From Gammaproteobacteria bacterium (GTDB taxonomy: Bacteria > Pseudomonadota > Gammaproteobacteria > SZUA-152): a stretch of DNA of 64,000 bases. The position numbers were made by a program, and so were the translations under genes. The notes under the pieces were generated by a model that was not told the DNA's origin, did not search any database, and saw nothing but the letters and a program-made list of their open reading frames with translations. This document shows positions 15,633 to 51,108 of this stretch, piece after piece. The DNA is taken from NCBI GenBank assembly GCA_021648485.1, contig JAKISS010000001.1:2650-66649 (forward strand), written 5' to 3'. The first letter of the stretch is position 1; every line of letters starts with the position of its first letter.

Positions 15633-16079
15633 ATGTTTCGAGCATTGAAGACATTTTTATTATTTTTCCTGGTTTTCCAGGTTGGAATGATGCCCATATC
15701 GCAGGCGTTTGCTGCGCGGCACATGCATGATAGTTCCCATGAAGTTTCCCATAAAAAAATAATGACTGCTGTTTTTCCATCGTCAGCGATGATTGCGGAA
15801 TTTCAACACGTTGTTAAATCCAACAGAAAAGACGGTTTGTCAGATATGGCTCATGTCTCTTCCTCGTCACAGAAAACATATTTGCAAAGCAGCCGGTGTG
15901 GCAAAAGAAATGGGCACAAAGGGGATTGTGACAGTTGCCAATGTACACCGATTGTTGCTGCTCCTGTTTTAATGCAAGAGACTTCGGTATCGACACCAGC
16001 GGAATCGTATAACGTTAAATGGGGTTGTCCATTATACAACGTTTTTATGGCTCCACTTCTCAGACCTCCCGCTTCCTGA
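15633..16079 (+). CDS. small secreted Cys/His-rich protein with C-terminal 'LY..LLRPP' tail (CzcI/DUF2946-like; assignment from memory)
   Basis: Signal peptide 'MFRALKTFLLFFLVFQVGMMPISQAFA', a Cys cluster 'CDSCQC', and the tail 'CPLYNVFMAPLLRPPAS'. That tail is shared with the ORFs at 42500 and 50776. Confidence 0.55.
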   Translation: MFRALKTFLLFFLVFQVGMMPISQAFAARHMHDSSHEVSHKKIMTAVFPSSAMIAEFQHVVKSNRKDGLSDMAHVSSSSQKTYLQSSRCGKRNGHKGDCDSCQCTPIVAAPVLMQETSVSTPAESYNVKWGCPLYNVFMAPLLRPPAS

Positions 16080-16449
16080 ATATCACCGCGTATTTATTTG
16101 TAAGACGATATAAATCGTTCTACAAAAAATTAATGCGCAAAGAGCGCTCCTTAAGTTGTGAATACAGCCTCCGTTATATATCGAGGGTGCGTAAAACTTA
16201 ATCGCTTGAAGTATTTCCGCGATAAAAATTCCTGTCGCAGATTGGTTGGTGTTCTGTTTGTTTATTAAACAGGCCCTATAAAATATTCATTATCAGAGGT
16301 AACGTAATGAAAAGATATAATGCAAAAATGTTTAAAGTTAAGGGGAAGCTTGTAATTAGCACAAGCTTTAACTATATACCGGGGGGCGTGCTGCTCTGCT
16401 CCAAGTTGGAGCATGCCTGCGATCTCAATCAAACCTGGGGGCAACACAA

Positions 16450-18015
16450 ATGAAGAAAGTCAGTATGAAGATGTCTACGTGTTTTTGTCGTGTGGGAGCA
16501 ATGTTTATGCTTCCGATAGTGGCGATAAGTATGTTTTTGGTTGATATCGGTGCCGCAGAAGCGGTACCGGCTTTTGCGCGCAAGTTTCAGGCAAACTGTG
16601 CTTTGTGCCATACCAATGTTCCTCGGCTTGCACCTTTCGGCCAGCAGTTTCTGGCCAATGGTTATCAGTTTCCGGGCACAATGGATGGTGGTGATACTGC
16701 CAAAATCAAACTGGATGGTGCTCAGGGGCCAGTAACGCTGGATACGTTATCTAACATGATGGCTGTGCGTTTACGCGGTGACATCCAGAAAGCCTCGTTC
16801 AAAAATGAACCTGGAGATGGTGTTGATGATCGCTGGGCCATTGAAATGCCTAAAATCGTCAATTTTTTCTTTGGTGGTACCGTTGCGGAAAATATCAGTT
16901 ATTTTATCGAGTCTGAATACAACACTATGGAAAGTGATGAACCTTCTGTGAAATTCGAGCGGGCTGTCATGCAATTTAGCAACCTTGGCGGTGTACAAGG
17001 TGTTGCGAATGTGAAAGTAGGTCGATTTGATCCTTCGTCGCTGTTTTCATTTCCGACTCATCGCCAGCAGTTGAACCCGATTCTGCCGATTGCGGATACG
17101 GGTACGTATCCACCGATGATCCAGCGGATTCCCTTATTACCCTATGCATTTTCGAGCAAATTATTCGGCATGAGCACTGCGGGGGTTGCGGCAGGTACAG
17201 CCGGCACTGCTGTGGGTGATGGCTTTTCTCTGTTGCCATTTGCCCCAACACTGTATAACGCGCCAGTGCAGAATGGTATTTCGATACATGGCCGCCCGGG
17301 TGGTGGTGGAAGCCCATTGCTGTATCAAATAGGGCTCGCATTGAATGATAAAGCGGATGGTACGGCTGAACAGCGCACGGATGTTTATGCCATGTTGCGT
17401 TTTGATTTCCAGGCAGCCGGGGCTGATGCGCAGATTTCCGGTTTCTGGTACAACGCACCGGATGCGGCCCGCTCAACATTGTTGATGCTTGGTAATGTTC
17501 AATATGCAGACAGCGCAACAGACATCACCCGTGTGGGTATTGGTGCGCGGGCGCAATGGGAAACGGTGGATGTCTATTTTGCATATACCCAGGATTCAAT
17601 TGACAATCCGACATGGAATGATTTGCCTAATGCGATGATGATCGCTGCGGCCAACAGTTCAGAATGGCAAGACACCGCAACGGGGTTTTCTCTGGAGGCA
17701 GACTGGCGTTTTGACCCTAACTGGATGCTGGGTGTGCGTTATGACCAGATGGATGCAGGTGGTCTGGAGCGATTGCCAGCAGGGGTGGTAACAGCTGCAA
17801 ATGACAAGATTAATGCCACCGTGCAAATGATCAGTCCCATTCTCAAATACTATCCCAGCCCTAATATTGCGTTGTATACGCGGGCACACATCAATATAAG
17901 TTCTTCCTCTACACTGCCAGATACAAACGGTCAGGTTGCGGGGTTTTCAGGCCAGGAACATCCAGCCTCTAATCTGGAAAATGTGTTGACGTTGGGTGTC
18001 GATATGGCTTTCTAG
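16450..18015 (+). CDS. outer-membrane fused monoheme cytochrome c-porin candidate (Cyc2-like)
   Basis: Signal peptide. A single CxxCH ('PAFARKFQANCALCHTNVPRLAPFGQQF', nt 16597-16611). The ~450 aa that follow are Gly/Ala/aromatic-rich with no further Cys, ending in 'GVDMAF' (an OM-barrel C-terminal Phe). Confidence 0.6.
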   Translation: MKKVSMKMSTCFCRVGAMFMLPIVAISMFLVDIGAAEAVPAFARKFQANCALCHTNVPRLAPFGQQFLANGYQFPGTMDGGDTAKIKLDGAQGPVTLDTLSNMMAVRLRGDIQKASFKNEPGDGVDDRWAIEMPKIVNFFFGGTVAENISYFIESEYNTMESDEPSVKFERAVMQFSNLGGVQGVANVKVGRFDPSSLFSFPTHRQQLNPILPIADTGTYPPMIQRIPLLPYAFSSKLFGMSTAGVAAGTAGTAVGDGFSLLPFAPTLYNAPVQNGISIHGRPGGGGSPLLYQIGLALNDKADGTAEQRTDVYAMLRFDFQAAGADAQISGFWYNAPDAARSTLLMLGNVQYADSATDITRVGIGARAQWETVDVYFAYTQDSIDNPTWNDLPNAMMIAAANSSEWQDTATGFSLEADWRFDPNWMLGVRYDQMDAGGLERLPAGVVTAANDKINATVQMISPILKYYPSPNIALYTRAHINISSSSTLPDTNGQVAGFSGQEHPASNLENVLTLGVDMAF

Positions 18016-18154
18016 AGGTTATTTTGGCGGGTGCAGAGATGTACCCGCTTTTTCTCTTTCTGGTTCCCTCGGTCCTCCGTGGGAATCCATATCCGGCTTT
18101 GTAGTAGTAACAACATCATACACTTTTCGGCATATCACTTGCCTTTACCACCCG

Positions 18155-19546
18155 TTAATTCAAGTTATGCAATATGACCCGAAACCGGGTACATTTTTCT
18201 GTGGATTCAACTTTGATACTGCCACCATGAATGTCAATAATGGATTTGACGATGGACAACCCCAGTCCGGCACCTTCGTCACTGCGATGCCGTGAGGCAT
18301 CAACACGATGAAAACGGTTGAACAGTAGCGGGATGTGTTCAGCCGGAATAACCGGGCCGGGGTTTTCCACGCTGATGGATATGGTCTGCCCGGGCAATTG
18401 TTCAAGTCGCACATGCACGGTATTGCCCGACGGAGAATGACGAATGGCGTTGGATAAGAGGTTGTTCAATACACGCCGCAACATGAGCCGGTCTGCGAGC
18501 ATGGTGGCGGTGCCATGCAGGACTAACGCAACACCTTGTTCTTCCGCCCATGCTTCGTAGTACTCAAAAAGATCCTGTACTTCTTTGGCGAGATCAACAT
18601 CCGTGCGGTTCAGTTGGTACTGCCCGTTATCCGCTTTGGCAAGGAACAACATGTCACCGATCATTTGTGCCATGCGTTCATATTCTTCGATATTGGAATA
18701 AAGGATTTCACGGTATTCATCATTGCTGCGCGATTGAGACAGGGCTACCTGGGTCTGTGTCAGCAGACTGGTCACCGGTGTGCGGAGTTCGTGAGCAATG
18801 TCGGCAGAAAAATTGGATAAACGCTGAAAGGCTTCTTCCATGCGTGCGAGCATGTCGTTGAATGAGTTTGCCAGATCGGTAAGTTCCCGGGGTACGGTTT
18901 CCGGAGATAAACGCGTGTTCAGTTCGTTGGCACTGATGCGGTGGATTTGTGTGACGATGGTGTGCAAGGGGGCATGGCCCCGACGTACGGCTATCCAGCC
19001 CATCAGGCCCATGAGTACGGTGCCGCTGGCAACCATTAACCACAATGTGAGACGAAAATGGTCAAGAAAGCGCAAGTGGCTGTTGATAGCCACAGCCACA
19101 GACATTGTATAATACCGCGGAGTTGTCGTGTTGTTTTCCGCAAGGTGTCGGGTTAATACGCGGTAAGTGTGTTTGGCATCACTCCAATGGCGTATTTTAT
19201 CATTATTGTCGAAAGTGGTTTGATTGAGCGAGGAAAGATCAGGCCCGCCAGGACTGGAAAACAGGGTATAGCCATCCGGAGTGGTGATGTGCAGTACGGT
19301 GCCATGGTGCCCCACCAGCACGTCATTAAATCTTTGCGCCAGCGCCACAGGGCTGTTTGTTGCATCGTGGCCGGCCAGTGTTTGTGATACGGCGTGAGCA
19401 ACACTCGCAAGCTCAGCATCATCTTCAATCTCAAAATGACGTTCAATGGAACGCTCGATGATCCAGCCGAAACCGGTTAAAACTATGGCCGCAGCAATGG
19501 CAAACAGCAGGGTCAGGCGTAACGTTAGCGAAGGTGGTCGGCGCAT
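18155..19546 (-). CDS. copS: heavy-metal (copper) sensor histidine kinase
   Basis: Two TM helices flank a periplasmic domain. HAMP, H-box 'FSADIAHELRTPV', and N/G boxes 'NLLSNAIRH' and 'GAGLGLSIVKSI'. Adjacent to copR and divergent from copAB. Confidence 0.85.
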   Translation of the reverse strand: MRRPPSLTLRLTLLFAIAAAIVLTGFGWIIERSIERHFEIEDDAELASVAHAVSQTLAGHDATNSPVALAQRFNDVLVGHHGTVLHITTPDGYTLFSSPGGPDLSSLNQTTFDNNDKIRHWSDAKHTYRVLTRHLAENNTTTPRYYTMSVAVAINSHLRFLDHFRLTLWLMVASGTVLMGLMGWIAVRRGHAPLHTIVTQIHRISANELNTRLSPETVPRELTDLANSFNDMLARMEEAFQRLSNFSADIAHELRTPVTSLLTQTQVALSQSRSNDEYREILYSNIEEYERMAQMIGDMLFLAKADNGQYQLNRTDVDLAKEVQDLFEYYEAWAEEQGVALVLHGTATMLADRLMLRRVLNNLLSNAIRHSPSGNTVHVRLEQLPGQTISISVENPGPVIPAEHIPLLFNRFHRVDASRHRSDEGAGLGLSIVKSIIDIHGGSIKVESTEKCTRFRVILHNLN

Positions 19547-19552
19547 CGTTTT

Positions 19553-20236
19553 TCAATTTTCATCTGACACGTCAAGCATGTAACCCATGCCGCGTACAGT
19601 GTGAATCAACCGAGTGTCAAAGTCGTCGTCAATTTTAGCCCGCACCCGGCGAATTGCGACATCAATGACATTGGTATCACTGTCGAAATTCATATCCCAT
19701 ACTTGAGAGGCAATCAAAGAACGGGGCAGCACTTCTCCCTGGCGACGCATCAATAGTTCCAGTAAAGCAAATTCTTTAGCAGTGAGTGTGATGCGTTGGC
19801 CGTTACGGATAACCCGGCGACGCATAAGATCCAGTTCCAGGTCAGCAACTTTGAGTGTGGTTTCCGTTGCGATTGTTGCACCGCGTCGCAGCAGTGTGCG
19901 CACCCGCGCCAGTAATTCTGCGAAGGCAAAAGGTTTAACCAGATAATCATCCGCACCCAGCTCCAGACCTTTGACGCGATCTTCCACGCTATCCCGTGCG
20001 GTGAGAAATAACACAGGCACTGTTCTACCTGCTTCACGCAGTGATTGCAGGATACGCCAGCCGTCTACGTCCGGCAGCATGACATCGAGAATAATCAGAT
20101 CGTAAGGCTCGGTCATCGCAAAGTGATGGCCGTCCAGGCCGTTACGGGCGAGGTCTGTCACAAAGCCCGCTTCACTGAGCCCTTGTTTGAGATAGTCCCC
20201 GATTTTAGTTTCGTCTTCGACAATGAGTATTTTCAT
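19553..20236 (-). CDS. copR: heavy-metal response regulator (OmpR family, CusR/CopR type)
   Basis: 'MKILIVEDE...[14 protein letters not shown]' receiver domain plus a winged-helix C-terminus '[11 protein letters not shown]'. Confidence 0.9.
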
Positions 20237-20341
20237 TCATAACCTACAGTCGGTATACCGGAATTCGGATAGCGCTGGATAGAGCGCTTTGTATTTTACC
20301 TTGTGTACTTTATTCGCAATATGCTGTCGATAACATGACCG

Positions 20342-20365
20342 GATCATTACAACATTGTAATGATC
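20342..20365. promoter_or_regulatory. candidate CopR/CusR 'copper box' in the copR-copA divergent region
   Basis: Perfect 11-2-11 inverted repeat GATCATTACAA-CA-TTGTAATGATC. It lies 91 bp upstream of the MCO copA start and 106 bp upstream of the copR start. As I recall, the E. coli CusR box is TGACAA-N2-TTGTCA, which this resembles. Confidence 0.5.
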
Positions 20366-20455
20366 TTGTCAGCTTGAGGACAGGGAAAGTTCGCTATAGT
20401 TTTGACATCAACTCGGTGTGAACTGAACACACTCTTGCAAAAGGATTAAAGCCGC

Positions 20456-22216
20456 ATGAGAAGAACTCCCTCAAATACGCGTGTCATTCCCGACCTCTCT
20501 CGTCGCCGGTTTTTACAGGGGCTTGCTGCCGGTGGTGTACTGGCGGGTTTGTCACCCTGGGTCAAACCTGCCTGGGCAGGTGAAGTTGCCACCACGGCCA
20601 CGGGTATGGCTCCGGTGCTCAGTGGTACAGAATTTGATCTCGTTGTTGCGGAGACTGCGGTTAACTATACGGGCAGCCCGCGTATGGCAACCACAATCAA
20701 CGGTTCCATTCCGTCCCCCATTTTGCGGTGGCGTGAAGGTGATACGGTGACTATTCGTGTCACTAATCGTCTGAACACATCAACCTCTATTCATTGGCAT
20801 GGCATCATTCTGCCGTATCAAATGGATGGTGTTCCCGGGATCAGCTTTGCCGGTATCGCGCCTGGTGAAACCTTCACTTACCGTTTTAAGGTAGATCAGG
20901 CAGGCACTTATTGGTATCACTCCCACAGTGGCTTTCAGGAACAGACCGGCATGTACGGCACAATTATTGTTGAACCAAGAGGCGGTGAACACATTCGTGC
21001 GGATCGTGATTATGTTGTGCAGTTATCGGATTGGACTGACGAAGATCCCATGAAGGTGTATGCGAAGTTAAAAAAACAAAGTGACTACTATAATTTTAAT
21101 GCACCGACGGCCATGGATTTTTTCCGCGATGCTTCCGAACGTGGTCTGGGTAAAGCCATGGAGAGACGGCGCATGTGGAATCAGATGCGCATGAGTCCCA
21201 CGGACCTGGCGGATATTTCTGCCCACACTTATACCTACCTTATGAATGGCACGACACCGGCGGGTAACTGGACCGGGCTGTTTAATCCGGGTGAGCGGGT
21301 GCGGTTGCGTTTTATCAGCAGCGGCACGCAGAGTTTCTTCGATGTGCGTATTCCCGGTCTGAAAATGACCGTAGTGCATGTGGATGGCCAGGATATCGAA
21401 CCGGTCACTGTGGATGAATTACGCTGCGGGCCGGGCGAAACATATGACGTGCTGGTGACGCCTCAGGACGATGCCTACACTATTTTTGCGCAATCCATGG
21501 ATCGTACCGGCTATGCACGTGGCACGCTCGCGACCCGTGCGGATCTCACTGCCCCTATTCCGAAGCTGGATGAACCCGAATGGCTGACCATGACGGACAT
21601 GATGGGTGCAATGGCCCAGGGTGGTGTTATGGGTGGTATGGGCGGCATGAATCACAGTGGTCACAGTATGTCAGGCAGCATGAATAAAAATGCTACACCG
21701 GTACGTCACGCCAAAACGGAATACGGACCGAGTGTGGATATGCGTGTGGATATGCCGCGTACCAACCTGGATGATCCGGGTATCGGTCTGCGTAACAATG
21801 GCCGACGAGTGCTGACGTATGCGGATATAAAAACACCTGGTGAGCCTGTTGACCCGCGTGAGCCTGGCCGGGACATTGAATTACATCTAACGGGAAATAT
21901 GGAACGTTACACCTGGTCACTGGACGGTCTGGAATTTGGCAAGTCTACGCCAATACACTTCCGCCATGGCGAACGCCTGCGAGTGATTCTGCACAACGAC
22001 ACGATGATGACCCATCCTATGCATTTACACGGTATGTGGAGTGACATGGAAGATGCAGACGGGGAGTTTCTGGCGCGCCGACACACTATCAGCGTGCAAC
22101 CGGCGCAGCGCGTCAGTTTTCGGGTCACTGCGGATGCTCTCGGGCGTTGGGCCTGGCACTGCCACCTGCTTTATCACATGGATGCGGGCATGTTCCGCGA
22201 AGTGATAGTGACGTGA
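20456..22216 (+). CDS. copA: copper-resistance multicopper oxidase (CopA/PcoA type), Tat-exported
   Basis: Twin-arginine signal 'SRRRFLQGLAAGG'. Copper-ligand motifs 'HWHG', 'YHSH', 'HPMHLHG' and 'WAWHCHLLYHMDAGM'. Met-rich loop 'MTDMMGAMAQGGVMGGMGGMNHSGHSMSGSM'. Confidence 0.9.
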   Translation: MRRTPSNTRVIPDLSRRRFLQGLAAGGVLAGLSPWVKPAWAGEVATTATGMAPVLSGTEFDLVVAETAVNYTGSPRMATTINGSIPSPILRWREGDTVTIRVTNRLNTSTSIHWHGIILPYQMDGVPGISFAGIAPGETFTYRFKVDQAGTYWYHSHSGFQEQTGMYGTIIVEPRGGEHIRADRDYVVQLSDWTDEDPMKVYAKLKKQSDYYNFNAPTAMDFFRDASERGLGKAMERRRMWNQMRMSPTDLADISAHTYTYLMNGTTPAGNWTGLFNPGERVRLRFISSGTQSFFDVRIPGLKMTVVHVDGQDIEPVTVDELRCGPGETYDVLVTPQDDAYTIFAQSMDRTGYARGTLATRADLTAPIPKLDEPEWLTMTDMMGAMAQGGVMGGMGGMNHSGHSMSGSMNKNATPVRHAKTEYGPSVDMRVDMPRTNLDDPGIGLRNNGRRVLTYADIKTPGEPVDPREPGRDIELHLTGNMERYTWSLDGLEFGKSTPIHFRHGERLRVILHNDTMMTHPMHLHGMWSDMEDADGEFLARRHTISVQPAQRVSFRVTADALGRWAWHCHLLYHMDAGMFREVIVT

Positions 22217-22245
22217 ATATGGTGATGAAGGAAAAGGTGACTGCA

Positions 22246-23184: not shown

Positions 23185-23262
23185 AGGGTGATGGGTGCAA
23201 TGTGCTGATGCCACATTTAAACACCTGAATTTCAAATGCACAGGTATATGAGGACGTTAACG

Positions 23263-24327: not shown

Positions 24328-24349
24328 GACAACAAAATAGGAGTCACCT

Positions 24350-41876: not shown

Positions 41877-41882
41877 TGGAAA

Positions 41883-42284
41883 TTAATAAATACCGTTTTC
41901 ACGCTGTAACCAGCGAATAAAGGGTAAAAGAACATCAACATCTTTTCGTGTTGCACCTGGCACCGGTGGCATGTCGCCAAAGCGCCAGTGATGAGCTTGT
42001 ACACCTTTGAGCACTGCCCGGTAAAATGTCGGATCAGCATGGTGTGACGGCTTGTAAAATCCGTGCATCAACGGCGGACCCTGAGGGGTGCCATTTCCCC
42101 ATTTTCCGTGACAGCTGGAACACAGGTCTCTAAATTTTTCCATGCCGACAACATATTTTTCGGGTACTTTCGGTGGGTTGTCAATGGAATATTTAGTGGC
42201 AGCGATCACGCCCGACAGGGGAGCCAACGATAAAATTGCCAATGTAAGCAAGCTACAAAATAAAAATCGGAATTTCATCATCAT
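41883..42284 (-). CDS. c-type cytochrome (class I), paralog of 33581-33979
   Basis: Signal peptide, 'CSSCHGKWGNG', and the shared 'GPPLMHGFYKPSHHADPTFYRAVLKGVQAHHWRFGDMPP'. Confidence 0.8.
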   Translation of the reverse strand: MMMKFRFLFCSLLTLAILSLAPLSGVIAATKYSIDNPPKVPEKYVVGMEKFRDLCSSCHGKWGNGTPQGPPLMHGFYKPSHHADPTFYRAVLKGVQAHHWRFGDMPPVPGATRKDVDVLLPFIRWLQRENGIY

Positions 42285-42298
42285 TACCTTTTTGTAAT
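42283..42298. promoter_or_regulatory. possible second copper box (ATTAC-N6-GTAAT)
   Basis: ATTACCTTTTTGTAAT has the same half-sites and spacing as the core of 20342-20365 (ATTACAACATTGTAAT). It lies in the divergent region between the cytochrome genes and the Cus-like operon, but it overlaps the first of three consecutive ATGs of the cytochrome gene. Confidence 0.3.
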
Positions 42299-42499
42299 AT
42301 TAAAGAAACGGGGTTGTTTGCGTGTATTATATCGTCAAATTGATTGTGTATGTGATGCATTTGATGAGTCGGATGCAAGTTACACACAGGAAGGAACCTA
42401 CGCTTTGTGATCAGGTCAGACTGCACAATGTCCAGCGGCATTATGTATAGGCAATTGTTGACAAAATCACATACTGGCACCTACACTTTATCCCTAATC

Positions 42500-42868
42500 A
42501 TGGCTATCTTTATACAACATCTTCGTCTACTGCTGATCATTGCCATCGTGCTGTCACCTGTACAGCCTGTGTTTGCTGTGCAAGCTGACGATTCGATGGC
42601 TCTCTTGATGAGCGCAGAGGCAGCTATAGTCAGTGATATTGCCCAAAGCGATACGGTGAAAATGCTGGATGATGCTTGCAACAAGCAGGGGAAATGCAGC
42701 AATTGTCAGGATGTCAATCATTGCAGCAGTTGTCCTGTGTCGCTGGGAATTCCCCAGATTCTGTCGAAACATACCGAACTGAGTACGCATATTCAACTCA
42801 CTGTTTCAGGCGTTTCGCTCTACAGCGCTGATCTCTTGCCGGATTACCGGCCTCCACGTTACTCCTGA
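42500..42868 (+). CDS. small secreted Cys-rich protein with 'LY..LL..RPP' tail (CzcI/DUF2946-like), leader of the Cus-like operon
   Basis: Signal peptide 'MAIFIQHLRLLLIIAIVLSPVQPVFA', the Cys cluster 'CSNCQDVNHCSSC', and the tail 'VSLYSADLLPDYRPPRYS'. The start is uncertain (the track uses a GTG at 42407). Confidence 0.55.
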   Translation: MAIFIQHLRLLLIIAIVLSPVQPVFAVQADDSMALLMSAEAAIVSDIAQSDTVKMLDDACNKQGKCSNCQDVNHCSSCPVSLGIPQILSKHTELSTHIQLTVSGVSLYSADLLPDYRPPRYS

Positions 42869-43061
42869 TTTTTAACCTGCGGGGTTTGCCCGCATGGCTG
42901 CGCTTGCGCGCGCGTGTTATGAATATTTCAGGAGAATCTGATGATTCTGTTCCATTTGGCAGCTTCCGGTCAGAAAATGACTGGCATTACATTATTTTCA
43001 GGATTGCTCACAGCATTTCATTATGCTGTGGGTTTTATCTGCTTCAAGGAAGGAGGGTGGT

Positions 43062-44384
43062 ATGCCGTTTAAGCAATTATTTTCTCTGTTGGCGATTAGT
43101 GGTTTGCTTATTGTCAGCAGTGTCAACGTTGTGCTTGCAGCATCGGAGCCAAAGCAACTGTCTCTGGCGGATGCGGTGGCCATTACCCTGACGGATCACC
43201 CAGGGCTGGCGGCGATGAAAACCCGTGCCGAAGCGCTCGCCGCAGTGCCTTCACAACAAGGTTCGCTGCCTGACCCCCGCTTGTCATTGAACATGCTGAA
43301 TTTACCTATCGATAGTTTTGATTTTAATCAGGAAGGCATGACTCAGTTACAGGTCGGATTCAGTCAGATGTTGCCATTTCCCGGCAAACTTGGGTTACGC
43401 GAGGCCGTTGCCGAGCATGAAAGCACAGCGGCCCGCTGGCAGGTTGAAGAATTACGTTTGAAGCTGGTGCGTGATGTGAAAACGGTGTGGTGGAATCTGT
43501 ATTTCACGGATCGTGCGCTGGAAATCGTGGCTCGAAACAGGGGGCTGTTGCGTCAGTTTGTCGATGTTGCACAAACTAAATACAAGGTGGGCAAGGGGCT
43601 GCAACAGGATGTTCTGCTTGCGCAACTGGAATTGTCCAAATTGCATGATCAAAGCATCAATTTGCAGGGGTTGCGGCGCAATCAGGTTGTTCAACTGAAT
43701 ACCTTGCTGGACCAGCCCACCAATAGCCCATTGCAATTACCCCAACGAATAACGGAAACGCTGGCGGAGATTACTGATGAACAAGGGTTACTCAGTTATG
43801 CCGCAAAAACCCGTCCTGTGCTGGCTGCGGCTCACAGTAAAATTGATGCAGCCCGTGCCCGCCTGGGTCTGGCAAAAAAGAGTTATTCCCCTGATTTTAC
43901 GTTAGGTGCTGCGTATGGTTATCGTGGCGGAGAAAATATCGATGGCAGCAGCCGTGATGATTTTCTCTCTGTGATGTTCAGTATGAATCTGCCTATTTAT
44001 GCCGGAGCCCGGCAAGACAAGGCTGTCGATCAGCGTACTTCTCAGGTATTGCAAAACCGGTATGAACTGGATGATGCCCACAGCAGGGTAGCGGCCGAGG
44101 TATCGCGCGCATTGGCTGACTATCAGCAATCCCGCGAACAGGTCAGCTTGTTTAAACAGGGCATTATTCCCCAGGCCGCGCAGACCGTTGCTTCTATGCT
44201 GGCGGCTTATCAGGTGAGCAAAGTGGATTTTCTGAATCTGGTGCGTGCGCAGATTACCTTATTCAATTACGAGACCCGTTACTGGAAGGCTTTGTCCCGG
44301 GGCAATCAGGCGCTGGCACGATTAGCTGCGGCTGTTGGCAAGCAAAGTTTGTTTGATGGCGATGAAAAAAATAACTGGAATTAG
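43062..44384 (+). CDS. cusC: TolC-family outer-membrane efflux protein (CusC-like)
   Basis: SD 'AAGGAGGG' and a signal peptide. Two OEP repeats with the coiled pattern typical of heavy-metal RND outer-membrane factors. First structural gene of an OMF-MFP-RND operon. Confidence 0.8.
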   Translation: MPFKQLFSLLAISGLLIVSSVNVVLAASEPKQLSLADAVAITLTDHPGLAAMKTRAEALAAVPSQQGSLPDPRLSLNMLNLPIDSFDFNQEGMTQLQVGFSQMLPFPGKLGLREAVAEHESTAARWQVEELRLKLVRDVKTVWWNLYFTDRALEIVARNRGLLRQFVDVAQTKYKVGKGLQQDVLLAQLELSKLHDQSINLQGLRRNQVVQLNTLLDQPTNSPLQLPQRITETLAEITDEQGLLSYAAKTRPVLAAAHSKIDAARARLGLAKKSYSPDFTLGAAYGYRGGENIDGSSRDDFLSVMFSMNLPIYAGARQDKAVDQRTSQVLQNRYELDDAHSRVAAEVSRALADYQQSREQVSLFKQGIIPQAAQTVASMLAAYQVSKVDFLNLVRAQITLFNYETRYWKALSRGNQALARLAAAVGKQSLFDGDEKNNWN

Positions 44385-44429
44385 TATTTTTAATGCTAAT
44401 TGATTAGCACGAAATTTTGAGGTGAATTC

Positions 44430-45929
44430 ATGAACAAACAAACTGTGATGGTCGCAATACTGGTTGCATTGGCCGTGGGTGGCGGTGGTGGATACTGGTT
44501 TGCATCACGTATGGCTCCTGATGCCATGAGCACGGCTGGCGATGCCAAACAGGAACGCAAAGCCCTGTTTTATCGAAATCCTATGAACCCGGCCATTACG
44601 TCTCCGGTGCCTGCGCAGGACGAGATGGGTATGGATTATATTCCGGTTTATGCGGACGACAATACACCCAAAGAGCGCAAGGCACTGTTTTACCGGAATC
44701 CCATGAACCCGGCTATTACCTCACCAGTACCCGCTCAGGATGAAATGGGCATGGATTATATTCCGGTTTATGCGGACGAGGACAATGCCGGAGATGCTCC
44801 CGCAGGTACGGTGAAAATTGATCCGGTTACTGTACAAAACATTGGTGTGCGTACGGCCATCGTAGAGCAACGTACCCTGAGTCGGCATATTCGTGCAGTG
44901 GGTCGGGTTGCGTACAACGAGGAACGTTTATCCCGTCTGCATCCTAAGACTGAGGGTTGGATCAAAGAGCTGCGCATTGACAAAACGGGTTCACCGGTCA
45001 AAAAAAATGACATCCTGTTAAGTATTTATGCGCCGCAACTGGTTGCCAGCCAGGAAGAATATCTGTTGGCAATGAAAAGCAAACAGATTTTGGCAGACAG
45101 TCCTTTCGACGATATTCGTCAGGGAGCCATTGATCTGGAGAAAACGGCACGGGAACGTTTGGAATTGCTGGATATGGCTGAGCACCAGATTCGAGAGTTG
45201 GAGCGCACGCACGAGATAAAAAAGTATCTGCATATTCATTCACCTTTTAACGGAATCGCAATAAAAATTGGAGCCCGTGAGGGACAGTACGTTACCCCCA
45301 AAACAGAATTATATATGTTGGCCGACCTGTCCAAAATATGGGTGTATGTTGATATTTACGAATATGAATTGCCCTGGATTACGGTGGGTGATCAGGTCGA
45401 GATGGAATTAACGGGTGTGCCTGGCAGAGTTTTCACAGGCCGTCTTGCCTATATTTATCCCTATGCAGAGGCCAGAACCCGCACGATCAGAGTGCGTCTG
45501 GTTTTTGATAACAAAGAGTTGTTGTTGAAACCCGATATGTTTGCCGAGGTCAGCATTGCCGCGAGTCGGCAGATTGCTGCCGTAGTGGTGCCCGCCGAAG
45601 CTGTGGTGCGCTCAGGGACTCGTGAACAGGTATTCGTGGTGCGCGGTGCCGGAAAATTTGAACCGCGTGAAGTCAAAATCGGTATCACTACCAGCGGTGT
45701 CACCCAGATACTGACCGGTCTGAAGGTTGGTGAAGAAGTAGTGACCTCCTCCCAGTTCCTTATTGATTCAGAGTCCAAGTTGCGTGAAGCGACCGCGAAA
45801 ATGATGGAGATACTGAATGCGGGGCAGGGTGATAACAACTCCGCAAGTGTATTTGATGATATGTCTATGGATGATATGTCTATGGATGATATGTCTATGG
45901 ATGATATGTCGCCGGAAAAAGCAAAATAG
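44430..45929 (+). CDS. cusB: RND periplasmic adaptor (CusB-like) with duplicated N-terminal tri-Met module and C-terminal (DDMSM)n tail
   Basis: Membrane-fusion-protein core (a 'barrel-sandwich' region 'VKKNDILLSIYAPQLV...', and a beta-barrel 'VPAEAVVRSGTREQVFV'). Positioned between the OMF and the RND pump. Confidence 0.85.
   Translation: MNKQTVMVAILVALAVGGGGGYWFASRMAPDAMSTAGDAKQERKALFYRNPMNPAITSPVPAQDEMGMDYIPVYADDNTPKERKALFYRNPMNPAITSPVPAQDEMGMDYIPVYADEDNAGDAPAGTVKIDPVTVQNIGVRTAIVEQRTLSRHIRAVGRVAYNEERLSRLHPKTEGWIKELRIDKTGSPVKKNDILLSIYAPQLVASQEEYLLAMKSKQILADSPFDDIRQGAIDLEKTARERLELLDMAEHQIRELERTHEIKKYLHIHSPFNGIAIKIGAREGQYVTPKTELYMLADLSKIWVYVDIYEYELPWITVGDQVEMELTGVPGRVFTGRLAYIYPYAEARTRTIRVRLVFDNKELLLKPDMFAEVSIAASRQIAAVVVPAEAVVRSGTREQVFVVRGAGKFEPREVKIGITTSGVTQILTGLKVGEEVVTSSQFLIDSESKLREATAKMMEILNAGQGDNNSASVFDDMSMDDMSMDDMSMDDMSPEKAK
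44553..44792 (+). repeat. 120-bp (40-codon) tandem duplication inside cusB-like gene
   Basis: Both copies encode an identical 35-aa 'ERKALFYRNPMNPAITSPVPAQDEMGMDYIPVYAD'. The DNA differs at 16 third-codon positions. Confidence 0.95.
45855..45910 (+). repeat. perfect 15-bp tandem repeat x3.7 (GATGATATGTCTATG) encoding (DDMSM)n
   Basis: Read directly. It lies at the extreme 3' end of the cusB-like gene. Confidence 0.95.
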
Positions 45930-45935
45930 GGGCAC

Positions 45936-48900
45936 ATGATGATTCAAAATATTATTAACGCCTCGTTGCGTGATAAATTCCTGGTACTGATTGCCACAGC
46001 ATTAATCGTCGTGGCCGGTATATTTGCCGTCAAAAACACACCACTGGATGCCATTCCGGATCTTTCTGATGTGCAGGTTATTGTCTTTACCGAATACCCG
46101 GGACAGTCACCGCAGGTTGTGGAAGATCAGGTGACCTATCCCTTGACCACAGCAATGCTGGCGGTACCCTCTGCCAAAGTGGTGCGTGGTTATTCTTTCT
46201 TTGGTTTTTCCTTTGTCTACATTATTTTTGAAGACGGTACTGATATGTACTGGGCCCGTTCGCGGGTGCTGGAGTATCTAAACTATGTTAGCTCCCGGTT
46301 ACCTGCCGGACTATCGCCTTCGCTGGGGCCGGATGCTACCGGTGTCGGTTGGATTTACGAATATGCCCTGGTGGATCGCACTGGCAAACATGACCTGGCA
46401 CAACTGCGTTCCTTGCAGGACTGGTATTTACGTTATCCCTTGCAAACAGTACAGGGTGTTTCCGAAGTGGCCTCGGTAGGCGGTTATGTCAAACAATATC
46501 AGGTGGAGGTTGACCCCAATGCTTTGTTAGCCTACGGCATTCCGTTGTCCAAAGTAAAATATGCTATTCAGCGTTCCAATAATGATGTAGGTGGCAAACT
46601 GGTAGAGATGGCCGAGACCGAATACATGGTGCGCGGCAAAGGCTACATTCGTTCCATTGCGGACCTGGAAGTTATTCCGGTGGGCGTTGATGCCAATGGC
46701 ACACCCATACGCCTGATGGATGTGGCGAACATCCAGATTGGTCCCGAATTACGGCGTGGTGTGGCAGAGCTTAATGGCGAAGGTGAAGTCGTCGGTGGCG
46801 TGGTGATTATGCGCTTCGGCGAAAATGCCTTGGCCACCATCGAACGGGTACGTGAAAAGCTGGAAGAACTGAAAAGCGGTTTGCCGGAAGGCGTAGAGAT
46901 TGTGCCGGTCTATGACCGTGGCGACCTCATCGAACGCGCAGTGAATAACCTGGCTGAGAAACTCATCGAAGAATCCATTGTAGTGAGTCTTATCTGCATC
47001 TTGTTTTTGTTGCATGTCCGTTCGGCGCTGGTGGCTGTTATTAGCTTGCCTGTAGGGATTCTAATGGCGTTTATCATCATGAAATGGCAAGGCATTAATG
47101 CCAACATCATGTCGCTCGGTGGTATTGCCATCGCCATCGGAGCCATGGTGGATGGTGCCATTGTGATGATTGAAAATGCCCATAAACACCTGGAACACGC
47201 AGGTAATAAAAAGGGCCGTGAACTGACCCTGCCCGAACGCTGGGAAGCGGTGGCCTCGGCCTCACGCGAAGTGGGCCCCGCGTTGTTTTTCTCACTATTG
47301 ATTATCACCGTATCCTTCCTGCCGGTATTTACGCTTCAAGCCCAGGAAGGGCGTTTGTTCGCACCGCTGGCGTTCACCAAAACCTATGCCATGGCAGCAG
47401 CAGCCATTCTTGCGATTACTCTGGTGCCGGTATTAATGGGCTATTTTATTCGCGGCAGGATCATGCCCGAAGCCAAAAACCCGGTGAATCGTTTTCTGCA
47501 TGCCATTCATTCGCCGACACTGAAAAGTGCCATTCAGTGGCGTTGGTTGACGCTGTTTGTGGCGGGAACATTGTTACTGGTAACGGCCTGGCCGGTGAAC
47601 AAACTTGGCAGTGAATTCATGCCGCCGCTGGATGAAGGTGACATCCTGTACATGCCCACCACCTATCCGGGATTGTCGATTACCAAGGCCAAGGAAATTT
47701 TGCAACAGACAGACAAAATCCTCTACACCTTTCCGGAAGTGCATCAGGTTTTCGGCAAAGCGGGGCGTGCTGAAACGGCTACCGACCCGGCACCGCTGGC
47801 GATGCTCGAAACCACCGTACGACTAAAGCCTCGGTCTGACTGGCCGAACCCGGACAAGACCACCAAGGAACTGATGGCCGAAATGGATGCCGCGATCAAA
47901 TTCCCTGGTGTCGCCAATGCCTGGACCATGCCGATCAAGACCCGCATTGACATGTTGTCCACGGGTATCAAAACACCGGTTGGTATCAAAGTCAGCGGAC
48001 CGGACCTCAACGTACTGGAAGAGGTGGCAGGTAATATTGAACGGGCGCTAAAAACCATGCCGGATACATTGTCCGCCTTTGGAGACAAAGCAGCGGGCGG
48101 TTATTACCTGGACTTTGATATCGACCGTGTTGCGGCGTCGCGTTACGGTCTTACTGTGGGTGACGTGCAGGACATTATTCAAAGTGCCATCGGTGGTATG
48201 AACGTCACGCAAACGGTAGAAGGACTGGAGCGTTATCCCGTTAATGTGCGTTATCCGCGTGAGCTGCGTGACAACATGGAACAGTTAAAGCGGGTATTGA
48301 TTCCCACACCCACGGGAACGCAGATTCCACTGGCGCTAGTGGCCGAATTGATATTACGACGCGGGCCACCTGCCATCAAAAGTGAAAACTCACGACCCAA
48401 TGCCTGGGTTTATGTGGACATCAAGACTTCGGATATTGGTGGTTATGTGGCCGATGCCAAAGAGGTGTTGAAAGCCCAGGTGAAAATTCCGGCGGGTTAC
48501 ACTCTGGTATGGTCCGGGCAGTTTGAGTACATGGAACGTGCTGCTGAACGTCTGCGTATCGTGGTGCCAGTGACACTGCTGGTGATCTTCTTGTTGTTGT
48601 ATCTCAACTTTCGCAACGTTTCGGAACCGTTGGTGGTTATGCTTTCCATTCCCTTCGGACTGATTGGTGGTTTTTGGCTGATTTACTGGCTGGGTTTCAA
48701 TATGTCAGTGGCGGTGGCAGTGGGCTTCATTGCCCTGGCGGGTGTAGCAGCGGAAATCGGCGTGCTGGTATTAACCTTTATTGATCATGAAATCGCGCGC
48801 CGCCGTCGCGACAAAGGAGCAGCGTTGGATGCAAAAGAAATCATGGAGGCAGTACATGCAGGTACCTCGGAACGTGTACGACCGATTGTGATGACGGCTA

Positions 48901-49106
48901 CGGCCATCATCGCCGGTTTGTTGCCCATTATGTGGGGCAGCGGCACGGGTTCCGGTGTCATGCAACGTATTGCTGCACCCATGGTGGGAGGTATGGCCAC
49001 CGTCACTATCCTAAGCCTGCTGGTGCTGCCAGTGATTTATGGTTTGGTTTTGCAGTTTCAGGAACGACAACTGCGACGACAAACTGCAAAAAACAATGTG
49101 GCATGA
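45936..49106 (+). CDS. cusA: heavy-metal efflux RND pump, CusA family (Cu(I)/Ag(I) type)
   Basis: 1056 aa with 12-TM RND topology. The TM4 motif 'AIGAMVDGAIVMIEN' (nt 47133-47177) fits the monovalent-cation HME pattern, and 'NAWTMPIKTRIDMLSTGIKTPVGIKV' is typical of CusA. Confidence 0.9.
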   Translation: MMIQNIINASLRDKFLVLIATALIVVAGIFAVKNTPLDAIPDLSDVQVIVFTEYPGQSPQVVEDQVTYPLTTAMLAVPSAKVVRGYSFFGFSFVYIIFEDGTDMYWARSRVLEYLNYVSSRLPAGLSPSLGPDATGVGWIYEYALVDRTGKHDLAQLRSLQDWYLRYPLQTVQGVSEVASVGGYVKQYQVEVDPNALLAYGIPLSKVKYAIQRSNNDVGGKLVEMAETEYMVRGKGYIRSIADLEVIPVGVDANGTPIRLMDVANIQIGPELRRGVAELNGEGEVVGGVVIMRFGENALATIERVREKLEELKSGLPEGVEIVPVYDRGDLIERAVNNLAEKLIEESIVVSLICILFLLHVRSALVAVISLPVGILMAFIIMKWQGINANIMSLGGIAIAIGAMVDGAIVMIENAHKHLEHAGNKKGRELTLPERWEAVASASREVGPALFFSLLIITVSFLPVFTLQAQEGRLFAPLAFTKTYAMAAAAILAITLVPVLMGYFIRGRIMPEAKNPVNRFLHAIHSPTLKSAIQWRWLTLFVAGTLLLVTAWPVNKLGSEFMPPLDEGDILYMPTTYPGLSITKAKEILQQTDKILYTFPEVHQVFGKAGRAETATDPAPLAMLETTVRLKPRSDWPNPDKTTKELMAEMDAAIKFPGVANAWTMPIKTRIDMLSTGIKTPVGIKVSGPDLNVLEEVAGNIERALKTMPDTLSAFGDKAAGGYYLDFDIDRVAASRYGLTVGDVQDIIQSAIGGMNVTQTVEGLERYPVNVRYPRELRDNMEQLKRVLIPTPTGTQIPLALVAELILRRGPPAIKSENSRPNAWVYVDIKTSDIGGYVADAKEVLKAQVKIPAGYTLVWSGQFEYMERAAERLRIVVPVTLLVIFLLLYLNFRNVSEPLVVMLSIPFGLIGGFWLIYWLGFNMSVAVAVGFIALAGVAAEIGVLVLTFIDHEIARRRRDKGAALDAKEIMEAVHAGTSERVRPIVMTATAIIAGLLPIMWGSGTGSGVMQRIAAPMVGGMATVTILSLLVLPVIYGLVLQFQERQLRRQTAKNNVA

Positions 49107-49272
49107 ATGTCCCACATAATTGTAATTAAGCGGTTTTATTCCTCTCCTCTTGATGAGGGGGAAACTGGGAGGAAGGATGATATTACCGAACCTGATTCAA
49201 GCCTTCCCCCAACTCTTTGAAGTATATAAAAAGACGGAATATTAATATTACATATCAACAGGAGAATGAAAG

Positions 49273-49782
49273 ATGAAAAAATTAACACTGATTTCGGTTA
49301 TTACCACTTTGCTGGTTTCCATGAGTGCTGTTGTTCAGGCATCGGAAGGTCACGACCATGGCCATGATGACGGTCACAGCAACATGAGTGGAATGAAACA
49401 TGATGATCATCATGATGGTCATAGCTCTGCGGGTCATGATGAAAAGGGCATGCCACACAAAAAGGGCGAGATGTTTCTGGTGAAAAAAGAAGTTGATGGT
49501 TACGATGTCAGCTTCCACATCATGAAAGCCAAAGCCGGTAAGGAAATGGGAGGCAGTCATGACTTTATGATCAAAGTGGAAAAAAATGGCAAGGCACTGG
49601 ACAATATCACCATGAATACCAAAGTAGTGCATCCTAATGGCAAAGAAGAAAGTAAAAAAGTCATGAAAATGGGTGACTGGTATATGGCAGGCTATGACCT
49701 TGGGCATGAAGGAAAACATCAGATGATGATTCTTTTTAAAACCAAAGATGGTCAAAAACATAAAGCCGGAATTTATTATTAA
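49273..49782 (+). CDS. secreted His-rich metal-binding protein
   Basis: Signal peptide, 'SEGHDHGHDDGHSNMSGMKHDDHHDGHSSAGHDEKGMPH', then a ~110-aa beta-rich domain. SD 'AGGAGAA' upstream. Confidence 0.65.
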   Translation: MKKLTLISVITTLLVSMSAVVQASEGHDHGHDDGHSNMSGMKHDDHHDGHSSAGHDEKGMPHKKGEMFLVKKEVDGYDVSFHIMKAKAGKEMGGSHDFMIKVEKNGKALDNITMNTKVVHPNGKEESKKVMKMGDWYMAGYDLGHEGKHQMMILFKTKDGQKHKAGIYY

Positions 49783-49855
49783 GCAAATAATTACATGAGT
49801 GCCAGGCAGCTCAGTTTTTGCGCTGCCTGATACCCTGTATTTTCAGGAGCAGTCC

Positions 49856-50182
49856 ATGAACTTTAAAAAAGTAACAGCGATTATCCGTTGTGAATCCTGT
49901 GAAAAAGTTGAGCAAAAATTACAAAAGCTCGGTGTGCATGGTTTCAGTATCAGCAAAGTAAAAGGTTATGGTGAATATGCTGACCTTTACAGCAATGACT
50001 GGCTGGTGAGTCATGCACGCATTGAGATATTTACTGAAGCCTCCAAGGCGGAAGAAATTGCTGAAGCCATTATGGAGGCCGCACATGTTGGCCTGGAAGG
50101 TGATGGCATTATTGCAGTGTTGCCGGTTGAAAAACTGTTTCGGATTCGTACCCGTAGTGAGTTTAAGCCTGGTGATGCGTGA
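49856..50182 (+). CDS. P-II (GlnB)-like signal-transduction protein with divergent T-loop
   Basis: 'VTAIIR', 'GVHGFSISKVKGYGE' and 'GDGIIAVLPVEKLFRIRT' align with the PII fold. The T-loop region is altered. SD 'AGGAG' before the ATG at 49856. Confidence 0.7.
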   Translation: MNFKKVTAIIRCESCEKVEQKLQKLGVHGFSISKVKGYGEYADLYSNDWLVSHARIEIFTEASKAEEIAEAIMEAAHVGLEGDGIIAVLPVEKLFRIRTRSEFKPGDA

Positions 50183-50775
50183 TATTCGTCGATACTGGAA
50201 TATGCCTGAGTGTATAAATATGACTTAATGAGTTGTTTGCCGGAATAAAGCCAAACTATTTTCCACCAATTGACATATAAAAAATCAGAGTTGCGGCGGC
50301 TGGTCCATTTTTATGCGGGATATATTCAATGCCATATTCCACGTTATCATTGTATATTATTTGATCTATAGGTAATCCAACCGAAAGAAGGAGCTCAAAT
50401 ATACTTGTATAATGCGAATATCTTTTCTTTGATTAACCCCATTGATACCTACAGTACAGATTGTACTATCCCTGTTATCATTGCATTTTCTTAACGTAGA
50501 AAGATGGTAATACCTTACTAAAATCGGGAACTACTACCAATAGAAAATTCATTGTGGTTTTGTCATCCGGTGTCGAATGCAAATGCATGACACACCAGCA
50601 GAGGGCGCGCAATTTACCTCGTTTTCACTCGCGAAAAGGTCAGAATGTGATGGCAAAAGCACCTACAGGGTTGTCTTTCTGAGAAAATCATAAACTTGCT
50701 GCCTGAATTGCCGATACAGTACAGACGGGTAGAGAGAGTTGACTACGGAGCATGCTTGCAGCAGAATCGACACCG

Positions 50776-51108
50776 ATGCGAAAATTTCTGATCTCCATAT
50801 TAGTACTGATGAGCCTGTGCTCCGGGTCGGCCTTTGCCTGGGATAAACACCCTGCATCGATGTCGAACCATGGGGTGGCTGTTGCTATGGATATGGTTGC
50901 TGACCTGGATCATGATCATTCCGGTGGTTTCTCTCAAAACGGGTCGTATCCTGATGACCATTGTGGCCATGGCGCGGCACATCTGGTGGGCATCTTTTAT
51001 GACGCTTCGTTGAAAGCGCTGAATATCGACCACAGCTACCGCGCTGTTGCGATGGTTTCTTTTCCTTCCCTGTATATTTCTCCGCTACTCCGACCTCCTA
51101 TCGTTTAA
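50776..51108 (+). CDS. small secreted His-rich protein with 'LY..LLRPP' tail (CzcI/DUF2946-like), leader of the Czc-like operon
   Basis: Signal peptide 'MRKFLISILVLMSLCSGSAFA', 'DLDHDHSGG...DDHCGHGAAH', and the tail 'FPSLYISPLLRPPIV'. Confidence 0.55.
   Translation: MRKFLISILVLMSLCSGSAFAWDKHPASMSNHGVAVAMDMVADLDHDHSGGFSQNGSYPDDHCGHGAAHLVGIFYDASLKALNIDHSYRAVAMVSFPSLYISPLLRPPIV

Follow-up and report, generated by a model that had tools for sequence, protein, structure and literature searches.

Three small open reading frames (ORFs) in a stretch of 64,000 nucleotides from a hydrothermal-vent gammaproteobacterium (contig JAKISS010000001.1; this whole stretch is hereafter the window) each encode a protein with a signal peptide, a Cys/His cluster and a C-terminal Arg-Pro-Pro (RPP) motif. 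Each is followed on the same strand by a gene of outer-membrane type, as originally predicted: a Cyc2-like cytochrome-porin with a weak barrel match, and two OEP-family genes. The same prediction, made from the sequence alone, regarded the three proteins as paralogs of CzcI/DUF2946 type, whose function is essentially unknown, and proposed a generic role at the outer membrane. We arrive at a different view, in which the three ORFs are likely, if by no means certainly, cis-acting metal-sensing leader peptides of the CutF/CopL/CruR kind. The function of such proteins is no longer obscure, as CruR (2022) and CutF (2023, 2025) are known as cis-acting copper-sensing leaders with ribosome-pausing tails (PMC9426467; PMC9973294; bioRxiv 10.1101/2025.02.05.636593). 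Our view is built on observed or computed properties, namely the anatomy of the proteins, their conservation, a length ruler, an RNA stem with covariation in one family, and the gene neighborhoods. It would allow three "hypothetical proteins" of this bacterium to be annotated as regulatory leaders. The ORFs, which we call leaders 1, 2 and 3, are as follows.

15597-16079, + strand: leader 1 ORF, 148 amino acids (aa) from ATG 15633, or 160 aa from the in-frame ATG 15597
16062-16070, + strand: codons AGA CCU CCC for R144-P145-P146 of leader 1, two codons 5' of the stop; proposed ribosome-pausing site
42500-42868, + strand: leader 2 ORF (family 2), 122 aa with signal peptide; tail SLYSADLLPDYRPPRYS
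50776-51108, + strand: leader 3 ORF (family 3), 110 aa with signal peptide; tail SLYISPLLRPPIV

All three frames are open, and the clusters, motifs and tails are present as initially described. The signal peptides, which were assigned by inspection, have a basic n-region, a hydrophobic core of 12-17 residues and an AxA-type cleavage site (AFA/A, VFA/V and AFA/W for leaders 1, 2 and 3, respectively). The candidate metal ligands of leader 1 are C89 followed by C99xxC102xC104, and its tail is PLYNVFMAPLLRPPAS. Leader 2 has five Cys (C60, C66, C69, C75 and C78) and leader 3 has H62-C63-x-H65-xxx-H69. The RPP motif (residues 117-119 in leader 2; residues 106-108, codons 51091-51099, in leader 3) lies 2, 3 and 2 residues from the C-terminus. 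Previously, 5,334 CutF-like proteins have been collected that are shorter than 150 aa, have a signal peptide and PP in the last 15 residues, and precede a same-strand gene within 1 kb (bioRxiv 10.1101/2022.11.11.516240). The three ORFs share all of these properties, with gaps of 370, 193 (or 154) and 85 nucleotides (nt) to the next gene, except that leader 1 is 160 aa long if the conserved ATG 15597 is used; the 12-residue extension that this start adds contains 'VNIIKSYCAY', which is conserved among homologs. Our leaders fit an already described class, and the unusual point is the Cyc2-like cytochrome-porin as a proposed target.

The combination of features is rare in the genome. Of 39,261 stop-to-stop frames that are 40 aa or longer, only 62 terminate in RPP plus zero to four residues, and leaders 1-3 alone among these 62 also have a signal peptide and, at the right distance, a Cys/His cluster. 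A word-indexed search of genomes and metagenomes found 10, 20 and 29 homologs of leaders 1, 2 and 3, with conserved reading frames, and an exhaustive profile search added 11 distant small homologs to family 1. The three residues R-P-P are invariant in 22, 20 and 28 homologs of families 1, 2 and 3, the last of which is present in 34 of 300 genomes of the class.

It had been proposed that the three proteins are paralogs, with profile-profile significance of their tails as the test. Pairwise BLAST among them is weak (E 0.003-0.28). Comparison of family profiles with hhalign aligns families 1 and 2 over their full length (probability 94%, E 1e-7, 115 columns), and therefore leaders 1 and 2 are probably true paralogs. 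Family 3 shares with family 1 only the last 25 residues (probability 89%, E 2.6e-6), and its similarity to family 2 is not significant (E 0.055). Thus, the tail is recovered for two of the three pairs, and paralogy of leader 3 is not established to the same degree; leader 3 shares a functional tail, and this tail could be either homologous or convergent.

The suggested CzcI/DUF2946 type is apt in kind, in that the leaders are small, exported, have Cys/His clusters and are encoded first in metal operons, but it is not borne out as a family assignment. None of the three leaders matched any model of Pfam or NCBIfam. For DUF2946 (PF11162) in particular, they have no match at E<=1, and the whole genome has none at E<=10; 4 of 28 family-3 homologs match the model weakly (best E 0.012). 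Alignment of the leaders with three true DUF2946 proteins of the class, members of which display CPxC...RAPP, gave no significant similarity in hhalign, and neither did alignment of the leader 3 family with CzcI (E 0.033, probability 1.6%). There was also no Rfam match over positions 15400-51300, no tblastn match of leader 3 to plasmids, and no repeat copy of the spacers elsewhere in the genome. As a side observation, a protein of 1,657 aa in the representative library (P0061) matches family 1 in 21 separate stretches, each time in the segment with the Cys cluster (positions 95-136 of the profile); this long protein consists of repeats of a similar Cys motif.

Conservation in the leaders is strongest in the last 16-18 residues and in the length of the linker, which is fixed, and not in a domain. 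From metal motif to tail, the linker measures 26-27, 25-26 and 24-27 residues in families 1, 2 and 3, although its sequence is poorly conserved. The distance from the last ligand to the Arg of RPP is 38-39, 37-38 and 35-38 residues. By comparison, the stretch from the signal peptide to the metal motif varies about two-fold (32-71, 22-48 and 27-58 residues). Since the last ligand is 35-39 residues before the Arg, the metal site would be just out of the exit tunnel when the ribosome is on RPP. CruR and CutF have the same ruler property, with 45 residues (PMC9426467; bioRxiv 10.1101/2022.11.11.516240). Two AlphaFold2 runs on the family alignments gave a mean predicted local distance difference test score (pLDDT) of 51 and 50 and a predicted template modeling score (pTM) of 0.21 and 0.22, and the only confident part was the signal helix (residues 2-19 and 2-23).

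Evidence at the RNA level is clearest for leader 3, which precedes an operon encoding a Czc-type efflux system that begins with an outer-membrane factor (OMF).

51106-51114, + strand: 5' arm of a predicted masking stem, comprising the stop UAA and UCCUUU (UAAUCCUUU); pairs with GAAGGAUUA
51180-51188, + strand: 3' arm of the masking stem (GAAGGAUUA), which holds the Shine-Dalgarno sequence AAGGA of the CzcC-like OMF (ATG 51194)
51127-51166, + strand: central G+C-rich hairpin and UUUUUU, enclosed by the masking stem; a hairpin recurs here in most family-3 loci
51194-57966, + strand: Czc-type operon, directly downstream of leader 3 (gap 85 nt)
51194-52522, + strand: OMF (OEP-family, CzcC-like), first cistron after leader 3
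52519-53853, + strand: CzcB/NccB-like adaptor with a His-rich head
53881-57084, + strand: CusA/CzcA-family pump of the Czc-type operon
57088-57966, + strand: ZitB-like cation diffusion facilitator (CDF)

In many family-3 loci, the stop codon of the leader and the next 6-10 bases can form a stem with the Shine-Dalgarno region of the OMF gene, and inside this stem lies a G+C-rich hairpin. RNAalifold predicted no pairs in a MAFFT alignment of 15 family-3 spacers because the two arms are out of register in the alignment, and we therefore used a permutation test on duplex energies. For 22 family-3 loci from different genera, we compared the 20 nt that begin one codon before the leader's stop with the 22 nt that precede the OMF start. 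The mean duplex energy was -10.6 kcal/mol for arms of the same locus versus -6.5 kcal/mol for arms of different loci, and none of 20,000 permutations reached the observed mean (p<5e-5). Compensatory differences between the arms are visible. The predicted stem from stop codon to Shine-Dalgarno sequence thus has comparative support, of the covariation type, in family 3. A ribosome held at RPP, two sense codons 5' of the stop, would cover exactly the 5' arm. Because the stem joins the stop codon of the leader to the ribosome-binding site of the next gene, it points to control of expression rather than to a partnership between proteins.

The codons of the motif give a further hint. In 26 family-3 loci (L007-L036), the first Pro is encoded by CCU in 12, compared to 5.6 expected from the downstream gene (p ~0.003, without correction for shared ancestry), and the second by CCC in 16. 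This bias hints that the Pro codons (CCU CCN) might themselves be anti-Shine-Dalgarno sequences, but a synonymous-recoding test of this idea was negative for leaders 1 and 3 and for the oxidase loci described below.

The association of family 3 with outer-membrane efflux genes extends to other genomes, as anticipated: in at least 24 of 30 loci, an OMF homolog is the next gene, with a gap of mostly 35-85 nt. One locus (L013, G107:C68) has a family-3 leader with an intact LLRPPIA tail, and its next ORF matches only positions 390-807 of the model of a resistance-nodulation-division (RND) pump, with no OMF; this operon is probably rearranged or truncated.

The outer membrane is not, however, what the targets have in common. 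Relatives of all three families precede multicopper oxidases, which are periplasmic. In two distant family-1/2 relatives (L049, tail LYRPPRL, and L040, tail LYRPPRS) and one family-3 relative (L034, tail LLRPPAFTS), a Tat-signal multicopper oxidase is encoded ~90-100 nt downstream. No such leader precedes the multicopper oxidase of the window itself (20456-22216). RND operons simply begin with the OMF gene. Moreover, the ligands track the operon, in that the Cys-only leader 2 precedes a CusB/CusA-type operon and the His-rich leader 3 precedes a CzcB-type operon with a ZitB-like CDF; the two ligand sets predict which metal is paired with which pump. Together, the oxidase relatives, the position of the OMF gene and the tracking of ligands argue that the leaders are paired with whichever gene comes first in a metal operon, and not with outer-membrane proteins as such, and that they control expression of the next gene. 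The proposed generic outer-membrane activity is not supported, and the stem also speaks against it.

The following mechanism would account for these observations. The leader would be translated at the head of a metal-stress transcript, and its signal peptide would thread the nascent chain through SecYEG. With the ribosome at R-P-P, the Cys/His cluster, 35-39 residues back, would be just past the exit tunnel, at or in the translocon. There it could bind metal, presumably Cu(I) or Ag(I) in the Cys-only families 1 and 2 and metals of the Zn/Co/Cd type in the His-Cys family 3. Metal binding would alter the pulling force on the nascent chain and lengthen the pause at RPP. The parked ribosome would cover the stop codon and the following bases, which in leader 3 are the 5' arm that hides the czcC Shine-Dalgarno sequence, so that the next gene would be translated only while the leader's ribosome is paused. 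The released peptide would probably be unstructured and short-lived. It is important to emphasize that four points are transferred here by analogy from CutF and CruR, namely that the ribosome pauses at RPP, that metal is bound, which way the response goes and that export is co-translational; that the response would be induction by metal is also suggested by the efflux nature of the targets.

Leader 2 shows a related arrangement upstream of an operon encoding a Cus-type RND system. The features of this region, and the promoter-like sequences of leaders 2 and 3, are listed here.

42845-42855, + strand: UACCGGCCUCC, comprising the Tyr-Arg-Pro-Pro codons; paired in the consensus fold with GGAGGGUGGUA
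43052-43062, + strand: GGAGGGUGGUA, from the Shine-Dalgarno sequence through the first base of the OMF start codon
43006-43033, + strand: terminator-like 11-bp hairpin and U-rich tail in the leader 2 spacer, just 5' of the OMF Shine-Dalgarno sequence
43062-49106, + strand: Cus-type RND operon, downstream of leader 2
43062 or 43023, + strand: start of the OMF (OEP/TolC-family); gap of 193 nt, or 154 nt with the upstream ATG
44430-45929, + strand: CusB-like adaptor
45936-49106, + strand: CusA/CzcA-family pump of the Cus-type operon
42458-42487, + strand: promoter-like TTGACA-18-TACACT, with 10 of 12 consensus matches, ending 12 nt 5' of the leader 2 ATG
50739-50767, + strand: weak promoter-like TTGACT-17-CAGAAT in an AT-rich region, with 9 of 12 matches, ending 8 nt 5' of the leader 3 ATG

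The family-2 spacer is 192-195 nt long in all loci, and the leader 2 fold in the window has a z score of -3.9. The RPP codons of leader 2 may themselves form the anti-Shine-Dalgarno arm. The terminator-like hairpin at 43006-43033 is kept in the consensus fold, with some two-sided changes. We also observed that both pump spacers (43006-43033 and 51127-51166) have a G+C-rich hairpin and U-rich sequence between the leader and the Shine-Dalgarno sequence. Attenuation may act on top of masking of the ribosome-binding site in these spacers.

Leaders 2 and 3 both lack a Shine-Dalgarno sequence. Their mRNAs may be leaderless or nearly so, as has been reported for czcI2 of Cupriavidus metallidurans (PMC10127602). 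A candidate copper (CopR) box, ATTAC-N6-GTAAT, is located at 42283-42298, ~200 nt upstream of leader 2, and a second copy at 20346, between copR and the multicopper oxidase. No copy is upstream of leader 1 or leader 3, and the three matches in the window are not above chance.

Leader 1 is the least typical of the three, in both its target and its spacer.

16080-16449, + strand: spacer 1, 370 nt, between leader 1 and the Cyc2-like gene
16450-18015, + strand: Cyc2-like fused cytochrome-porin, 521 aa, with a signal peptide, a single CxxCH at residues 50-54 and a C-terminal Phe
18026-18049, + strand: terminator-like hairpin 3' of the Cyc2-like gene

Cyc2 proteins combine a signal peptide and one N-terminal CxxCH with an outer-membrane beta-barrel of ~400-450 residues; in the Cyc2-like protein, the putative barrel has a weak match to OMP_b-brl (E 0.0013, below the cut-off). 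The gene order, with a divergent thioredoxin-like gene, leader 1, a spacer of 340-420 nt, the Cyc2-like gene and convergent cusS/cusR, is found in five metagenome contigs and a sister genome (G276), all of which are close relatives. Beyond these, two full-length Cyc2-like orthologs in other families have a Cys-rich ORF directly upstream. In G140 (58% identity), this ORF has an FRPPRI tail 36 residues after the last Cys and a gap of 147 nt; in G045 (51% identity), it has an NPPPLSPSA tail 40 residues after the last Cys and a gap of 145 nt. Minimum-energy folds of these two loci pair the Pro codons with the Shine-Dalgarno sequence, but the signal is marginal (z -0.42 and -1.96; recoding fractions 0.08). 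Thus, the pairing of leader and Cyc2-like gene recurs in three gammaproteobacterial families, i.e., that of the window's genus and two others. Such an ORF is absent upstream of about 25 Cyc2-like genes that are more distantly related. The N-terminal region 'P[AS]FAR...CxxCH' is common to ORFs of 400-550 aa in 42 of 301 genomes. Two more Cyc2-like paralogs are in the window's own genome (C69:11577-12107 and C50:50293-50484, in frames of 445 and 411 aa), and the sister genome G276 gave three matches as well.

In the G140 locus (L082, G140:C5, 6348-12910), the genes after the Cyc2-like ortholog encode a beta-propeller of the YncE type, a MerR-family regulator and a P-type ATPase for copper that carries YHS and HMBD domains. 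By its gene content, this locus is a second copper-island context for this Cyc2-like clade. Because homologous leaders elsewhere precede multicopper oxidases, the clade may be copper-induced and serve in copper defense. We tentatively propose, while regarding it as rather less than probable, a distinct Cyc2-like clade controlled by Cys-rich copper-type arrest leaders; its members might be a copper-induced outer-membrane oxidase or electron conduit in copper defense (e.g., oxidizing Cu(I) at the cell surface) rather than respiratory oxidases of Fe(II). A limited literature search found no paper that ties Cyc2 to such leaders or to copper islands.

In spacer 1, the nucleotide sequence of a core at 16346-16381 hardly varies among four diverged loci (CTTGTAATTAxCACAAGCTTTAACTATATACC). 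This core comprises a perfect 8-bp palindrome, AAGCTTGT-N7-ACAAGCTT, at 16346-16368, and hexamers resembling -35 and -10 elements. From its sequence, the block may be an operator, a promoter or an RNA hairpin. A 48-codon ORF in the spacer (16307-16453), with a good Shine-Dalgarno sequence and an ATGA overlap with the Cyc2-like start, was considered, but we do not regard it as a conserved protein: substitutions in its first half are non-synonymous, its tail differs by frameshifts between homologs, and its conserved part is invariant at third positions and is therefore a nucleotide element.

Several observations weigh against interpreting the three ORFs as leader peptides. R-P-P followed by I, A, T or R is neither the RAPP of CruR nor the PPP of CutF, and the ruler is 6-10 residues shorter than the 45 residues of these proteins. 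The CutF motif does not stall alone in reporter fusions (bioRxiv 10.1101/2022.11.11.516240). The lack of a predicted fold is weak evidence because the alignments are shallow, and the low AlphaFold2 confidence could simply reflect this shallowness. In leader 2, the arms of the UACCGGCCUCC/GGAGGGUGGUA helix are invariant in four loci and therefore show no covariation; in the synonymous-recoding test, its native codons are in the best 8% (fraction 0.08), which is suggestive only. For leader 1, we found no masking stem (recoding fraction 0.94), its spacer is long, and the promoter/operator-like palindrome means that the Cyc2-like gene may have its own promoter. Finally, CzcI has been reported to be a mature periplasmic protein that damps (quenches) the CzcCBA pump (PMC10127602).

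A first alternative concerns the level at which the leaders act. Pausing at RPP might govern Rho-dependent or intrinsic termination in the spacer, as in CruR, with no unmasking of a ribosome-binding site. This idea is most relevant to leader 1, whose spacer is 340-420 nt long in all close homologs, and to the hairpins in spacers 2 and 3. CruR controls Rho-dependent termination over a 162-nt spacer (PMC9426467), and a monocistronic czcI message exists besides czcICBA in C. metallidurans (PMC10127602). The hairpin at 43006-43033 resembles a terminator, and the G+C-rich hairpin with UUUUUU in spacer 3 has counterparts in other family-3 loci. However, a terminator scan made no call at 51127-51166 and found no terminator-like site in spacer 1, where by eye no C-rich, G-poor tract stands out either. 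Hairpins that begin ~20 nt beyond the stop would be out of reach for a ribosome paused at RPP, and the element that covaries in family 3 is the stem between stop codon and Shine-Dalgarno sequence. We consider action at the transcriptional level unlikely overall, though quite conceivable.

The main rival to the cis-acting leader peptides is a function in trans, in which stable, mature periplasmic metal-binding peptides act on the pump or the outer-membrane component, as in the CzcI model. Such a function could coexist with a role as leader. CzcI, which is reported to quench CzcCBA, is likewise encoded upstream of czcC, each of the three window proteins has an export signal and ligands of metal type, and family 3 is paired with OMF genes in most loci, as described above. 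Against this, the mature parts have no predicted fold, and it is the tail and linker length that are conserved, not a domain. RPP is always 2-3 codons from the stop, which the RNA stem ties to the next Shine-Dalgarno sequence. The oxidases that relatives precede are periplasmic, not outer-membrane, proteins, and similarity to CzcI is not detectable. On balance, we believe that this explanation is unlikely to be the correct one. That the shared tail is a functionless coincidence or convergence and some of the ORFs are not genes, as the weak pairwise BLAST and the restriction of family 3's similarity to the tail might suggest, is highly improbable given the 10-29 homologs per ORF with conserved frames, the invariant RPP, the conserved synteny and the significant profile comparisons.

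If the three ORFs are indeed metal-sensing leader peptides, they extend the principle of CutF and CruR to an RPP variant of the tail and a shorter ruler of 35-39 residues. The stem from stop codon to Shine-Dalgarno sequence is supported comparatively for Czc-type operons in many genera, where the published surveys that we consulted give intergenic lengths only. A Cyc2-like porin in copper islands would be a new kind of target and, if confirmed, would connect copper stress with a family that is known for oxidizing iron.

It is instructive to compare the leaders with known systems. The czcI gene of pMOL30 czcICBA in C. metallidurans CH34 lies directly upstream of czcC with a gap of 75 nt. Leader 3 is like CzcI in this position, in its signal peptide and in a motif, D-x-D-C-G-x-C-H-L-V in CzcI, that resembles DDHCGHGAAHLVG, the pattern common to both being D-x-[DH]-C-G...H-L-V. 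However, CzcI has no PP motif, and its tail is ARAPDRPQWQRLA. The exported monitoring substrates of the SecM/ApdA/ApdP/RQH family have an Arg/Pro arrest motif near the C-terminus (PMC10987492). As proposed here, the downstream ribosome-binding site is unmasked in these systems, and the pulling force of translocation releases the arrest (PMC10987492). They differ in that they sense Sec/YidC activity and have the motifs R-A/G-P-P or R-A-G-P, whereas our leaders would take a metal as input and have Arg directly before two Pro.

CopL, which precedes the copA multicopper oxidase in Xanthomonas and Stenotrophomonas, is described as a small cis-acting Cys/His-rich ORF needed for copper induction of the next gene (bioRxiv 10.1101/2022.11.11.516240). 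Exactly the same arrangement is seen in the family-1/2 relatives L049 and L040, while the window's leaders precede OMFs and a Cyc2-like porin rather than an oxidase; the likeness is one of arrangement.

CruR (Bp2923) of Bordetella pertussis is the type member of DUF2946 and is encoded by an upstream ORF, in which a CXXC motif senses copper and a C-terminal RAPP arrests the ribosome (PMC9426467). The spacing of the two motifs is 45 residues and tolerates changes of one or two residues, and copper binding relieves the arrest, which acts via Rho termination to turn an uptake receptor off (PMC9426467). The leaders resemble CruR in the export signal, the Cys motif, the Arg-containing proline motif 3 residues from the end, the conservation of the spacing, the place at the start of a copper operon and, for leader 1, the long spacer. 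They differ in having RPP instead of RAPP, a spacing of 35-39 instead of ~45 residues, and HCxH in leader 3 as opposed to the CxxC of leaders 1 and 2. In addition, the window's leaders head genes for efflux or oxidation, which are expected to be on with metal.

The closest parallel is CutF of Rhodobacter capsulatus (cutFOG), which is exported co-translationally and in which copper on a CxxxC motif prolongs a pause at the C-terminal proline motif (PMC9973294 = bioRxiv 10.1101/2022.11.11.516240; bioRxiv 10.1101/2025.02.05.636593). This pause melts a stem-loop that masks cutO's Shine-Dalgarno sequence (PMC9973294; bioRxiv 10.1101/2025.02.05.636593). Among CutF-like proteins, OEP genes (CusC/CzcC/SilC) are the commonest downstream neighbors, and some clusters are histidine-only (bioRxiv 10.1101/2022.11.11.516240). 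Our leaders differ from CutF in their RPP[IATR] motif versus a PPP run, in their ruler of 35-39 versus 45 residues, and in metal motifs of CxxCxC, CxxC or HCxHxxxH versus CxxxC; moreover, a Cyc2-like porin is not among the listed neighbors of the CutF-like class. They are like CutF in being small proteins that have a Sec signal peptide and, at a fixed distance from each other, a Cys motif and a C-terminal proline motif, and that are encoded directly upstream of a metal-resistance gene. A stem-loop over the Shine-Dalgarno sequence of the next gene, as in cutF, is predicted for leader 3 and, with invariant arms, for leader 2, with none found for leader 1, and relatives of the leaders head multicopper oxidases, as cutF does.

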